This document shows, one piece after another, positions 1,229 through 9,130 of a stretch of 64,000 nucleotides of DNA; the stretch's first letter is position 1; the number at the start of each line of letters is the position of its first letter. The notes under the pieces are model-generated. The model was not told the origin of the DNA and made no database searches. It saw only the letters and a program-made list of their open reading frames with translations. Source of the DNA: an uncultured Alphaproteobacteria bacterium (lineage in GTDB: Bacteria > Pseudomonadota > Alphaproteobacteria > HIMB59 > GCA-002718135). Both the position numbers and the translations under genes were made by a program. The stretch lies in assembly GCA_902524385.1 (NCBI GenBank), contig CABZCZ010000001.1:135941-199940 (forward strand). The letters are read 5' to 3'.

Positions 1229-1536
1229 TGAAACCAGGAGAAGTAATAGCAAAACAAAACAGTGATATTAATTTAAATGATGATCGAAATTCAATTAAAT
1301 TAAAGGTTTCAAATAGTGGAGATCGACCAATACAAGTTGGAAGTCATTATCATTTTGCTGAAACTAATGAATATTTAAAATTTGATAGAGAAAAATCCAA
1401 TGGTATGCGTTTAGACATTCCATCAGGCACAGCTGTTCGGTTTGAACCCGGACAATCAAAAGATATAGAATTAATTCCAATAAGTGGAGATAGAAAGATA
1501 TTTGGTTTTAATAAGAAAGTAATGGGCCAATTGTAA
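1228..1536 (+). CDS. ureB: urease beta subunit
   Basis: 102 aa. MKPGE..., [17 protein letters not shown] and RFEPG motifs are typical of urease beta. Confidence 0.95.
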
Positions 1537-3242
1537 TGAAAAAAATAAAAAGAGAAGCTTATGCTGATATGTATGGTCCAACAACCGGTGATAAAGTTAG
1601 ACTTGCTGACACAGAACTCTTTATTGAAGTGGAAAAAGATTTAACAACTTATGGTGAAGAAGTAAAATTTGGTGGAGGAAAAGTTATTCGAGATGGAATG
1701 GGCCAGTCTCAAGTATGTCGACAAGACGGTGCTGTCGATACAGTTATAACAAACGCTTTAATTGTTGATGTAAAAGGAATTTATAAAGCTGATATTGGTC
1801 TTAAAGATGGCTTAATTAATGAGATTGGTAAGGCTGGTAATCCAGATACACAACCAAATGTAAATATTATTATAGGACCTGGAACAGAAATTATTGCAGG
1901 TGAGGGAAAAATTATCACAGCAGGAGGTTTTGATAGTCATATTCATTTTATTTGTCCTCAACAAATTGATGATGCACTTCATTCCGGTATAACTACTATG
2001 TTGGGAGGAGGAACTGGTCCTGCACATGGTACTTTAGCTACTACAGTTACACCTGGACCATGGCATATAGAGAAAATGATACAATCAGCAGATGCTTTTT
2101 CTATGAATTTAGCTTTTGCAGGAAAAGGAAACAGTTCATTACCTAAAGCACTTGAAGAACAAGTGATTGCTGGTGCAAGTTCACTAAAATTACATGAAGA
2201 TTGGGGCACAACTCCAGCAGCAATAGATAATTGCTTAAATGTTGCTGATGAACATGACATTCAAGTTATGATTCACACTGATACATTGAATGAAAGTGGA
2301 TTTGTAGAGAGCACGATAAAAGCAATTAATGGAAGAACTATTCATGCGTTTCATACAGAAGGAGCAGGAGGAGGTCATGCGCCAGATATTATAAAAGTTT
2401 GTGGTGAAGAATATGTTATTCCATCATCTACAAATCCGACAAGACCGTATACAGTTAATACAGTTGAAGAACATTTAGATATGTTAATGGTTTGTCATCA
2501 CTTGGATAAATCAATACCTGAAGATGTAGCATTTGCTGAAAGTCGAATTCGAAAAGAAACAATTGCCGCTGAAGATATACTCCATGATATGGGTGCATTT
2601 TCAATTATTGCATCTGATAGTCAAGCAATGGGTCGAGTTGGTGAAGTTATTATAAGAACATGGCAAACCGCTCATAAAATGAAAGTACAACGTGGGCAAT
2701 TAAAGGAAGAGCAGGGTGATAATGATAACTTACGTGTTAAACGTTATATAGCTAAATACACAATTAATCCTGCCATTGCTCATGGTATTTCGGATCATAT
2801 TGGCAGTATCGAAAAGAATAAACGCGCAGATATTGTCATTTGGGACACAGCTTTTTTTGGTGTTAAGCCTGAAATGGTTTTACAAGGTGGAAGTATTTCT
2901 TGTTCACAAATGGGTGATCCGAATGCATCTATACCAACACCACAACCAGTGTACTCCAGACCAATGTTTTCTTCTTTTGGAAAATCATTAGAAAAATCTA
3001 CTGCAACTTTCGTAAGTAAAGCTTCTTTAGATAAAAATTCATTCAAAAATTCTGGAATTAGCAAATCTTTATTACCAGTTAAAAATATTAGAAAAATTTC
3101 TAAAAAAGATATGGTATTAAATGATTATTGTCCAAATATAGAAGTTAATCCAGAAACTTATGAAGTTAAGGCAGATGGAGAATTAATTACCTGTGAGCCT
3201 GCTAAAATACTACCTTTAGCTCAACGTTATTTCATGTATTAA
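1536..3242 (+). CDS. ureC: urease alpha (catalytic) subunit
   Basis: 568 aa. Carries the hallmarks [46 protein letters not shown] and SSDSQAMGR. Confidence 0.97.
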
Positions 3243-5747: not shown

Positions 5748-6152
5748 TTATTCGTATTTATCAGAATACAAATAAGGTATGCCAATTACTAAAATAATAT
5801 AGAAGACCATAAAACCAGCTATTAGTGGAATAACTTCACCAGCAGGCACTGTACTAAATGGACCTAAAACAAATCCATAAATCACAAAAAGAATATTTAA
5901 ACCTACTAAATAATAGCCACCACTTCTTTTCATGCTATACAACATATAAATTGTGTAAGCGATTGCTAACTGAAATACGATACTTACAATAAAATCTAAA
6001 GTTGAGAGCTGAACATTAAAATCTCCAACAGGGGGTTGTACACCTTGCCCTGAAAAATACCCATAAGTTATTCGGTAGGTAGTATCAATAAAATCTAATG
6101 AAATTAAAATTAACATAATCCAATGTAATGGCTTGAATAAAGTTTCTTTCAT
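5748..6152 (-). CDS. hypothetical integral membrane protein
   Basis: 134 aa with about 4 hydrophobic segments. Confidence 0.55.
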   Translation of the reverse strand: MKETLFKPLHWIMLILISLDFIDTTYRITYGYFSGQGVQPPVGDFNVQLSTLDFIVSIVFQLAIAYTIYMLYSMKRSGGYYLVGLNILFVIYGFVLGPFSTVPAGEVIPLIAGFMVFYIILVIGIPYLYSDKYE

Positions 6153-6183: not shown

Positions 6184-6888
6184 CTAATTATTATTTTTTT
6201 CATTGTCTTGTTGATGATTAACAACATCAACCAGTATTGCAATTACAAGATTTAAGATTGTTATTGAACAAATAGAGATAAAAGAAAAAAAATAAATCCA
6301 AGACCACCAATATATTGCTTGCATAGGCAGCATAACATTTTCCCAACTGGATAAGGTTAAAACCTGAAAAAGAGTAATAAGAGAAATACCTAGATCAGCC
6401 CATCTTTCTGGATCATCATCTCCAAAGAGAATAGATCCCATTGTTGCATAAATATATAGTATTATAAAAAGGAGCAAACTGACAAAAAAAACTCTTTTGA
6501 TTGATGCAAGAATAGCTTCAATAATTTTTTTTAATTCAGGTATTACAGATATCAGTCGTAGAACTCTAAATATACGAAGTAGACGTAAAACTAAGAAACT
6601 AGAGTTGTTAGGAATTGGTATAAGAGAAATTGCAACAATTATTGTATCAAAAACATTCCAACCATTCTTTAAAAAATTTTTTTTCTCTTTTTCACCTATA
6701 AAACGGATAAGTATTTCAATTACAAAGAAAACAGTTATAGCATAGTCAAGTAGATGAATCGTATTTAGAAAGATTGGATCTAACTGATAAGTTGTAGCGC
6801 CTATAAGGATAGCATTTAATATTATTATAGTTACAACTGAGAATTGAAATATACGATTATCTTTTAATTTTGCAAAAAAATCTATCAT
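6184..6888 (-). CDS. voltage-gated ion channel, single 6-TM domain (BacNaV-like)
   Basis: 234 aa. S4 is LRLLRIFRVLRL, with 4 Arg at every third residue. The pore segment LFQVLTLSSWENVM aligns with the NaChBac/NavAb LFQVMTLESWSM. Confidence 0.8.
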   Translation of the reverse strand: MIDFFAKLKDNRIFQFSVVTIIILNAILIGATTYQLDPIFLNTIHLLDYAITVFFVIEILIRFIGEKEKKNFLKNGWNVFDTIIVAISLIPIPNNSSFLVLRLLRIFRVLRLISVIPELKKIIEAILASIKRVFFVSLLLFIILYIYATMGSILFGDDDPERWADLGISLITLFQVLTLSSWENVMLPMQAIYWWSWIYFFSFISICSITILNLVIAILVDVVNHQQDNEKNNN

Positions 6889-7076: not shown

Positions 7077-8075
7077 TTAAAGACCTGTTTTTATTACTAC
7101 TTTACCATGTTTATCTCGTGGTTCTTTTAAATATTCCCACGCATTACGATATTCTTCCATTGGATATGTACGATCAATATTAGGCTTTAACTTTTCTTCT
7201 TTCAATGATTTATAAACAAAATCAGTTCCTCTATTTTTCATTTCAACATTTTCAACATAATTAAATAGTGAATATGGATGAAATGTAGCGTTTGCTTGAA
7301 ACATATCCACTATTGGTAATTGTGGAAATACTCCATCTAAAGTTCCATAAAAATAAATAGTGGCATCACGTGCAAGAGCAGGACTATATTTTGATATCAT
7401 GTCCTGGCCAACAGGATCAAAGGCAGCATCAATACCTCTACCGTTTGTCATTTCATTAATAGTAGATGCTAAATTATTTTTTTTAGGAACAATTACATAC
7501 GAAGCGCCTGACTGAATTAAATAGTCAGTATTTTTTTCAAACCTTGTAGTTGTAATCATATTGGCTCCATATAATTTGCCAATATTTAATGCTGCATTTC
7601 CAGCTGTACTCGTTCCAGCTGTTACGAGAATATTTTTTTCTGGTGAAGCTTTGCAAAGTTCAACCATTGGGTAATAAGCAGTCATAAATTGCATCCATAC
7701 CGAAGAACTTTCCACAGCACTTAATCCTTCTGGTGCACGAGTAATATATCTTGCATCTATCGTGATATAATCAGCACTCGCACCTTTATTATAATAAAAG
7801 TAGGGTAGAGTGCAGTATCGTTTACCAAGTTCTATATTATTTACACCTTCTCCAATTTGATCAACTATTCCAGCAGCTTCCATTCCTATTCGTGCAGGAA
7901 ATTTTTCAAAACTAAAAGAATATCGATCCAGCATTAAATCCATATCACCCCAATTGAGAGCAAAAGCTTCAATTCTAAGACGTACTTCACCTGGACCTGC
8001 GTTTTGTATTTCACAATCCCGTAATGTTAAACCTTGATAACCTGAATATTCATAAATAACCCATTCACGTGCCAT
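7077..8075 (-). CDS. MDR-family NAD(P)H quinone oxidoreductase / zinc-type alcohol dehydrogenase-like
   Basis: 332 aa with a GroES-like N-domain and a Rossmann region (VTAGTSTAGNAA). Confidence 0.8.
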   Translation of the reverse strand: MAREWVIYEYSGYQGLTLRDCEIQNAGPGEVRLRIEAFALNWGDMDLMLDRYSFSFEKFPARIGMEAAGIVDQIGEGVNNIELGKRYCTLPYFYYNKGASADYITIDARYITRAPEGLSAVESSSVWMQFMTAYYPMVELCKASPEKNILVTAGTSTAGNAALNIGKLYGANMITTTRFEKNTDYLIQSGASYVIVPKKNNLASTINEMTNGRGIDAAFDPVGQDMISKYSPALARDATIYFYGTLDGVFPQLPIVDMFQANATFHPYSLFNYVENVEMKNRGTDFVYKSLKEEKLKPNIDRTYPMEEYRNAWEYLKEPRDKHGKVVIKTGL

Positions 8076-8110: not shown

Positions 8111-9130
8111 CTAAATTGTCTTTAAATTATCAATTTTTCTATCCATGATAAAGAACCATAATGGAGGAATTAAAGCCATTACTAACATGACAGAATAATT
8201 AGCAGGCATTTCTATTGCTTTTTCTTCTTGAGATAGAAGAGGGTAAGGTTTTGATGCACTTTGATGATGCTCTGCATGAAGACCTAAATTAAATGTCGAC
8301 CAATTAGCGGAAATATGACGACTATTCCAAGAATGGAGATCTGTGAATCTTTCATATCTTCCATTCTCTTTTTTTCTCTCTAATCCATAGTGTTGAATAT
8401 AATTTACTATTTCCAATAAAATAATTGAAACAAAAGAATGAAAAATAACAAAAACTAAACCATTAATTCCAGCAACTAAGTAAGCTATTAACAAAAATAT
8501 AAATTCCAGTACAAAATAATGTATCATTCTGTTCTGTAGATTTAAAGTTTTAATATTTTTTCTTTCAAGAATATTTTTTTCAATTTTCCATGAAGAAATT
8601 ACACTATTAATTACACACCGAATAAAATAAAAATAAAAATTTTCTCCTCTTCTAGCTGTAGCAGGATCTTCTTTTGTAGCTACCTTTCGATGATGACCAT
8701 AAATATGTTCAATACGAAAATGTCCATAACAACATAAAACAAGTAAGAATACACCAATACCTCGCATAAATTTATTTTGTCTATGAATAAGTTCGTGCGC
8801 TGTGGTAATACCTATTGAGCCACCAGACATACCTACAGCTGCCCCTAATGCTGTTGCCGCTAAAATTGTAATATTAGGATTTGAAACAATATATAAACCA
8901 AAGATTATCAAGAATAATATACAAGGAAGTACTATTAAAATTGAGAAATTGTGAAAGACATTTTCTTTTAACTCAAGATCATCCTTATTTAAATAAGGTA
9001 AGAGCAAATCAATAATTGGAACTAATACAAAAACCCAAATAAATGGGGATATCGACCAGGATGGATTAATTATTAATCCTAAGGAACTAGAAAGTATTAA
9101 TATTAGTGGAGTTACTAAATAAAAAATCAT
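8111..9130 (-). CDS. alkB: alkane 1-monooxygenase-like membrane di-iron hydroxylase
   Basis: 339 aa. His boxes HELIHR, EHIYGHHRKVATKEDPATARRGE, NYIQHYGLER and LHAEHH closely follow the AlkB pattern. Confidence 0.8.
   Translation of the reverse strand: MIFYLVTPLILILSSSLGLIINPSWSISPFIWVFVLVPIIDLLLPYLNKDDLELKENVFHNFSILIVLPCILFLIIFGLYIVSNPNITILAATALGAAVGMSGGSIGITTAHELIHRQNKFMRGIGVFLLVLCCYGHFRIEHIYGHHRKVATKEDPATARRGENFYFYFIRCVINSVISSWKIEKNILERKNIKTLNLQNRMIHYFVLEFIFLLIAYLVAGINGLVFVIFHSFVSIILLEIVNYIQHYGLERKKENGRYERFTDLHSWNSRHISANWSTFNLGLHAEHHQSASKPYPLLSQEEKAIEMPANYSVMLVMALIPPLWFFIMDRKIDNLKTI

Follow-up and report, generated by a model that had tools for sequence, protein, structure and literature searches.

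Results

The channel gene and its predicted protein

The window, by which we mean the whole stretch of 64,000 nucleotides that was analysed, carries at 6184..6888 on the minus strand a complete ATG-start ORF of 234 amino acids plus stop, the coding sequence of a NavRh-type single-domain voltage-gated cation channel. The Pfam Ion_trans model (PF00520) covers residues 11-230 of the 234 with E=7.8e-44, a value that puts a chance match far out of consideration, and a weaker PKD_channel match overlaps it. The AlphaFold2 model of the protein has a mean pLDDT of 81 and displays helices S1-S6 together with the P1 and P2 helices as expected. In a search of the NCBIfam models the only match was an archaeal K+ channel model at 29 bits, far below its cut-off of 300, and an exact-sequence look-up returned no identical record, the nearest cluster being 97% identical.

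The voltage-sensor domain S1-S4 (residues about 12-115; 6544..6855, minus strand) comprises predicted helices at residues 12-31, 38-65, 76-88 and 99-115. The S4 helix (6544..6594, minus strand) reads LVLRLLRIFRVLRLIS, the same as in NavRh, and carries its gating arginines at every third position, 102, 105, 108 and 111. Alignment A1 shows no variation at R102, R105 and R108, and at least 90% conservation at R111. N25, D48, E58 and D81 are located inside the S1-S4 region, where they would act as the countercharges, and are the same residues in NavRh.

The P1 pore helix (LGISLITLFQVL, residues 166-177; 6358..6393, minus strand) coincides with a helix predicted over the same residues and aligns with the pore helices of BacNaV and Cav channels. 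It is followed by the selectivity filter T178-L179-S180-S181-W182-E183-N184 (6337..6357, minus strand), a direct reading of the sequence, where NavRh has TLSSWET. The S6 inner helix (residues about 196-222; 6223..6303, minus strand) is predicted to be helical from residue 196, and its Asn213 is invariant in alignment A1 and the same in NavRh. The protein closes with a short C-terminal tail, DVVNHQQDNEKNNN (residues 221-234; 6187..6228, minus strand), which has neither neck nor coiled-coil.

The features of the BacNaV superfamily are thus present: one 6-TM Ion_trans domain in a protein within the range of about 230-290 aa, four S4 arginines with the countercharge positions of S1-S3, and a pore helix, a T-x-x-x-W filter and the S6 Asn, with LFQVLTLSSWEN pairing with LFQVMTLESWS. 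The first-pass annotation had proposed a 6-TM BacNaV-type voltage-gated channel with four S4 arginines at every third position and a pore helix that aligns with those of BacNaVs, and all of this is borne out by the Ion_trans match, the predicted S1-S6 helices, R102/105/108/111 and the HMMER pairing of the pore helix.

Register of the selectivity filter and length of the tail

Counting codons from 6888 places residues 178-184, T-L-S-S-W-E-N, exactly at 6337..6357 on the minus strand, the same motif and coordinates that had been read initially. HMMER alignment with NavAe-type pore constructs pairs lfqvltlsswe with LFQVMTLESWS and then opens a one-residue gap, while against Cav3.1 the same segment pairs with FQVITLEGWVD of repeat I and FQILTQEDWNK of repeat II. 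In a MAFFT alignment with 23 homologues (24 sequences) the filter is set against TFEDWTD, TFESWAT and TLEGWPD. As these three independent alignments agree, the column of the canonical Glu belongs to Ser180, and Glu183 stands three residues further on. The first reading, with Ser in place of the key Glu and an acidic residue three positions later, is therefore correct, and the mis-registration that had been named as its possible flaw did not appear, since the canonical column holds Ser180 and no Glu. The filter consequently differs from the canonical NaChBac/NavAb type, position 3 being Ser180 and not Glu, as well as from the AnclNav/CavMr type, positions 3 and 7 being Ser and Asn and not acidic. 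It corresponds to the NavRh type, with TLSSWE, Ser at the constriction and Glu at position 6.

The tail DVVNHQQDNEKNNN extends 14 residues past the S6 motif LNLVIAILV, close to the roughly 15 residues first estimated, and the accompanying claim that neck and coiled-coil are lacking stands. A spacer of 31 nt separates the channel from the next ORF downstream; there is no room for a neck plus coiled-coil. The C-terminal neck and four-helix coiled-coil of canonical NaChBac/NavAb channels are absent, and the relatives with E/D filters (AnclNav-like) have tails of 40-86 residues that end in a heptad-like segment. Channels of the NavRh type have about 227-234 aa and end within about 7-14 residues of the S6 motif, and the window protein falls within both ranges. 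In the secondary literature on NavRh we found no explicit statement on its missing C-terminal domain.

Gene neighbourhood

The channel gene is flanked by a urease cluster (UreD, urease alpha and, as we presume from their translations, the accessory ORFs UreF and UreG) and by several unrelated genes, which encode a Zn-dependent dehydrogenase, an FA_desaturase-family membrane enzyme and an EamA transporter. Further neighbours are a 90-aa ORF and a 134-aa membrane ORF. These neighbours are common to the close lineage only; SAR11 genomes further removed retain the channel but do not have them around it, and synteny therefore offers no functional clue.

The channel is followed, 31 nt further on and on the same strand, by the 134-aa ORF (5748-6152, minus strand), a predicted membrane protein without a Pfam family. 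It is kept, at 95-98% amino acid identity, in 44 of the 80 related loci, all of the close lineage; in loci L008 and L015 inserts of 0.5-2 kb separate it from the channel. A terminator scan from the channel to this ORF gave no terminator-like site, and a promoter scan around the channel gene gave 8 promoter-like sites against 12.4 expected, which is below random. Directly upstream of the channel is a 332-aa ORF resembling Zn-dependent dehydrogenases and quinone oxidoreductases (7077-8075, minus strand). This ORF is found in only 7 of the 80 loci, and in the close relatives inspected (L001, L008, L015 and L055) the FA_desaturase-family ORF (8111..9130 in the window) adjoins the channel instead. 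The site of the dehydrogenase looks like a small flexible insertion point.

Two other observations concern the surroundings. The Rfam model 5_ureB_sRNA (RF02514) matches at full length and above its gathering score (98.5 bits) at 1689-1974 on the minus strand, antisense within the urease alpha ORF (1536..3242, plus strand); most likely this reflects conserved urease coding sequence under the model and not a SAR11 sRNA. Between 12000 and 20000 of the window the GC content is 0.34-0.36, compared with about 0.27 elsewhere. This segment, which appears ordinary, holds genes for a MarR-like regulator, an alpha/beta hydrolase and a complete Opp/Dpp-type ABC transporter (SBP_bac_5, two permeases and a fused double ATPase).

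Orthology to NavRh

A phmmer search against all PDB chains gave one outstanding match, 4dxw_A (229 aa, E=3.7e-121), in which residues 1-224 align with residues 1-224 without a gap. The identity is 192/224 (85.7%), counted on the 4DXW sequence as transcribed from the phmmer alignment. N25, D48, E58, D81, R102/105/108/111, S180, S181, E183 and N213 were all checked and are identical in the two proteins. This is further supported by a Foldseek comparison of the AlphaFold2 model with the PDB, where the four 4dxw chains take ranks 1-4 and NavMs, NavAb and CavAb come next. The entry, released on 2012-05-23, is entitled 'Crystal structure of NavRh, a voltage-gated sodium channel', and the structure was reported by Zhang et al. 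(2012, Nature). NavRh is the channel of Rickettsiales sp. HIMB114 (UniProt D0RMU8, PDB 4DXW; PMC4278185), a marine SAR11-type alphaproteobacterium.

On this comparison of sequences, the window protein is almost certainly the SAR11 orthologue of NavRh. The two share the same S4, countercharge residues, S6 Asn and TLSSWE filter, a linker from filter to P2 that is one residue shorter than in NavAb-type channels, and the lack of a C-terminal neck or coiled-coil. They differ at filter position 7, which is Asn here and Thr in NavRh (T184N), in a tail that is 5 residues longer here (234 versus 229 aa), and in 32 substitutions in all, mostly conservative; these differences are ordinary natural variation. 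The first-pass annotation had implied an uncharacterised filter variant. This view has to be given up, as NavRh, to which the protein is orthologous at 86% identity without gaps, has a TLSSWE filter that has already been analysed in the literature.

Distribution in SAR11 and selection

Scanning one genome per species yielded 80 related loci, and all 80 belong to single-cell genomes, metagenome-assembled genomes (MAGs) or isolates of Pelagibacterales/SAR11, for example Pelagibacteraceae bacterium AG-337-I02, Pelagibacterales bacterium CODY6, Ca. Pelagibacter ubique HIMB4 and HIMB1709. The best matches among them are 97-98% identical to the window channel. The window accordingly derives from a SAR11 genome, in keeping with its GC content of 24-36%. 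TLSSWE is present in each of the 77 loci with a readable filter, as TLSSWEN (51), TLSSWET (13), TLSSWEQ (12) or TLSSWEM (1), so that Asn at position 7, as in the window, is the commonest natural variant in genomes (51/77). Every scorable tail among the SAR11 genome loci has 7-14 residues.

The metagenomic set gives the same picture. It consists of the best 120 of 3170 matches, taken as clusters at 90% identity; nearly all of these are marine-metagenome proteins of 227-230 aa, some of them named 'voltage-gated sodium channel' by JGI. Among these best 120 the filters are TLSSWET (63), TLSSWEN (49), TLSSWEQ (4), TLSGWEN (2), TLSSWEI (1) and TLSSWEM (1), that is, TLSSWE in 118 of the 120 nearest clusters and TLSGWE in the other two. 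The tail has 7-13 residues in the 118 that could be scored. Genome and cluster counts together demonstrate that the TLSSWE filter and the short tail are fixed, family-wide characters of the SAR11 channel. In a library of representatives at 50% identity, short-tailed TLSSWE/TLSGWE proteins reach 43-60% identity to the window protein (P0122, P0126 and P0154). About 50 SAR11 single-cell genomes and MAGs at species level, with AG- and AH- names (L001-L050), carry the TLSSWEN form itself.

The channel gene is under very strong purifying selection. Compared with its closer relatives (91-99% amino acid identity) the Nei-Gojobori dN/dS is 0.009-0.053 at a proportion of synonymous differences of 0.54-0.68, with synonymous sites near saturation. 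For the nearest genome relatives (among L001-L076) the protein is 98-99% identical while 54-56% of synonymous sites differ, corresponding to a dS of about 1 and a dN/dS of 0.009-0.026. Purifying selection of this extreme kind is often described for SAR11 core genes. Our values agree with the pN/pS of 0.016 given for the SAR11 vgsc gene in a 2025 paper (PMC12636525). There, coastal and offshore Pelagibacteraceae genera differ in the distribution of vgsc, which is characteristic of the coastal ones, and comparative genomics led to the suggestion of a role in coping with variable salinity (PMC12636525).

Could the short tail be an artefact, that is, the mark of a truncated or decaying gene, or of an assembly or frameshift error that deleted a coiled-coil? 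The contrast with NaChBac, NavAb and AnclNav-type channels, with their tails of 40-86 residues, is the one argument for this, and we give it practically no credence. Every tail that could be scored among the 77 SAR11 genome loci is equally short, as are those of 118 of the 120 metagenomic clusters, the crystallised NavRh itself has 229 aa, and a separate ORF lies 31 nt downstream. Selection as strong as that observed (dN/dS 0.01-0.05) excludes a truncated or decaying gene. The reading as a truncation or pseudogene was accordingly rejected on family-wide tail length and dN/dS.

Discussion

Relation to other channel families

With the canonical BacNaVs (NaChBac, NavAb, NavMs and NavAe) the window protein shares the single 6-TM Ion_trans domain, four S4 arginines, the S6 Asn, the P1-filter-P2 architecture with T..xW and the homotetrameric fold, at 32-35% identity in Foldseek alignments. 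In contrast to their TLESW filter, position 3 has changed from Glu to Ser and the carboxylate is shifted to position 6; in addition, one residue is missing after the filter, as are neck and coiled-coil. The one-residue gap that HMMER opens after the filter against NavAe-type constructs agrees with the published remark that NavRh is one residue shorter than other BacNaVs just above the filter (PMC6152994).

The ancestor-like BacNaVs (AnclNav), among them CavMr and NavPp, have the filters TLEGWVD and TFEDWTD, summarised as T(L/F)E(G/D)W(V/T)D (Shimomura et al. 2020, PMC7041947). Their linker after the filter has the same length as in the window protein. However, Glu/Asp at position 3 and Asp at position 7 give them 2-3 acidic residues per subunit compared with one here, and their long tails end in a heptad-like segment. 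In a library of 1.84 billion proteins the nearest single-domain relatives beyond the TLSSWE clade are of this type, with filters such as TFEDWTD (P0129, P0133, P0141 and P0156). P0129, with the TFEDWTD filter, reaches 216 bits at 45% identity, while NavAb, NaChBac and NavMs reach 131-147 bits, which suggests that the NavRh clade may be nearer to the ancestor-like BacNaVs than to NavAb/NaChBac and was perhaps derived from them, as judged from bit scores and identity only. The four proteins P0129, P0133, P0141 and P0156 score about 200-216 bits and have long heptad-like tails.

Glu183 aligns with the outer EEDD ring of eukaryotic Nav channels, three residues past the DEKA locus. Because Glu183 matches this outer-ring position, NavRh has served as a scaffold for DEKA models (PMC5008630, PMC6152994). 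The bacterial channel differs in being a homotetramer with an inner ring of Ser, with no Lys and no four-repeat asymmetry.

What is known of NavRh

The TLSSWE filter and the missing coiled-coil of the window channel are already-known properties of NavRh. The crystal structure of NavRh, the peculiarity of its filter and the selectivity of the graft have been on public record since 2012, and the channel is the subject of many simulation studies. Zhang et al. in 2012 (Nature) and 2013 (Cell Research) reportedly described the roles of Ser181 and of the Thr178 and Leu179 carbonyls and the trapping of Ca2+ at Glu183. When transferred to NaChBac, the NavRh filter, TLSSWET, is Na+-selective, and its carboxylates share the spatial position of those in NavAb, but NavRh itself showed no function on expression in mammalian or insect cells (PMC4225499). 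Its functional activity had not been demonstrated as of PMC4278185, and it is tabulated as not conducting Na+ (PMC5460950). Elsewhere the filters of NavAb and NavRh are contrasted as 'TLESWS or TLSSWE' (PMC5445024), Ser180 is described as the equivalent of the constriction or inner ring and Glu183 as the outer ring, the counterpart of EEDD in eukaryotic channels (PMC5008630), and hydrated Ca2+ has been captured in or above the filter at a possible blocking site (PMC4692491). In molecular dynamics simulations of wild-type NavRh, Na+ and K+ alike are quick to enter the filter, and the authors write of the 'weak Na+/K+ selectivity of these channels' (PMC5008630). A BacNaV relative with an altered filter, NsvBa, is non-selective (PMC4225499).

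The first-pass annotation had considered that ion selectivity, and possibly gating, could be unusual unless TLSSWEN channels were already characterised as ordinary Na+ channels. For the filter this is largely the case, the graft being Na+-selective. As native NavRh has never given currents, views on how the native protein selects ions and gates are deduced, for the NavRh clade in general, from the filter graft and simulations.

A model of channel function and its alternatives

The whole mechanism that we favour is probably that of a homotetrameric, voltage-gated, Na+-preferring NavRh-like channel. Four identical 234-aa subunits would form the voltage-gated cation channel. S1-S4 would act as the voltage sensor, in which the four S4 arginines pass the acidic and polar countercharges N25, D48, E58 and D81 on depolarisation, and S5, P1, filter, P2 and S6 would make up the pore. 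At the constriction the inner Glu ring would be replaced by Ser180, and the four-carboxylate ring would be provided by Glu183, one turn further out. Glu183 and Ser181 would form an outer cation site and the backbone carbonyls of Thr178 and Leu179 an inner one, the roles of Ser181 and of the carbonyls being those reportedly described for NavRh, and Ca2+ would be expected to act as a blocker at the outer site. A Na+-preferring pore is expected because the NavRh carboxylates share the spatial position of the NavAb Glu ring, and also because of the NaChBac graft experiment. In the absence of a cytoplasmic neck or coiled-coil, tetramer assembly must rest on the transmembrane domain. For the SAR11 channel we infer both native conductance and assembly without a C-terminal domain.

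As the only carboxylate ring lies at the outer mouth above a Ser-lined constriction, the native SAR11 channel might instead be a weakly selective or non-selective cation channel, passing Na+ and K+ and perhaps modulated by Ca2+. The quick entry of both ions into the wild-type NavRh filter in simulations (PMC5008630), the non-selectivity of NsvBa (PMC4225499) and the lack of any native current recorded from the NavRh clade point in this direction. Against this, the TLSSWE graft makes NaChBac Na+-selective and the carboxylates are reported at the spatial position of those in NavAb (PMC4225499), and we therefore consider weak selectivity rather unlikely. The lack of a heterologous current would also be explained if the protein were no stand-alone depolarisation-activated channel, needing a SAR11-specific partner, lipid or condition, or having another role altogether. 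Such a dependence is consistent with the listing of NavRh as not conducting Na+ (PMC5460950; PMC4278185), with tails of 7-14 residues in every scorable clade member and with the conserved 134-aa membrane ORF 31 nt downstream in the close lineage. However, NavRh crystallised alone as a tetramer (4DXW, four chains), gating charges, countercharges, S6 Asn and pore helices are intact under strong purifying selection, more distant SAR11 lineages keep the channel without the downstream ORF beside it, and failure in heterologous expression is presumably common for AT-rich marine bacterial membrane proteins. We regard this alternative as very improbable, somewhat more so than weak selectivity.

More broadly, the missing current, the missing assembly domain, the single ring of carboxylates outside a constriction lined by Ser, and the extreme conservation are grounds on which native NavRh-clade channels might be thought not to be conventional Na+ channels at all, owing to unusual selectivity, Ca2+-dependent block or other needs in gating or assembly. 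On this view the polymorphism of N, T and Q at filter position 7 could tune such properties between SAR11 lineages or habitats. Although these are its bases, the idea seems to us improbable, and the Na+-preferring, voltage-gated NavRh-like channel remains our preferred reading.

Significance for SAR11

As an entry in a catalogue the window channel is of small value, being a known, well-conserved channel of SAR11. SAR11 are the ocean's most abundant bacteria, and the SAR11 cell is a tiny, non-motile oligotroph. The gene has been singled out as a habitat-associated SAR11 gene under strong selection (PMC12636525). In SAR11 cells the channel most likely admits Na+ on depolarisation and may so serve ionic or osmotic homeostasis, a role that is speculative. 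Even though synonymous divergence is saturated, the protein hardly varies over a very large number of SAR11 genomes, and the physiological use of a voltage-gated channel in these cells is therefore an ecological question.
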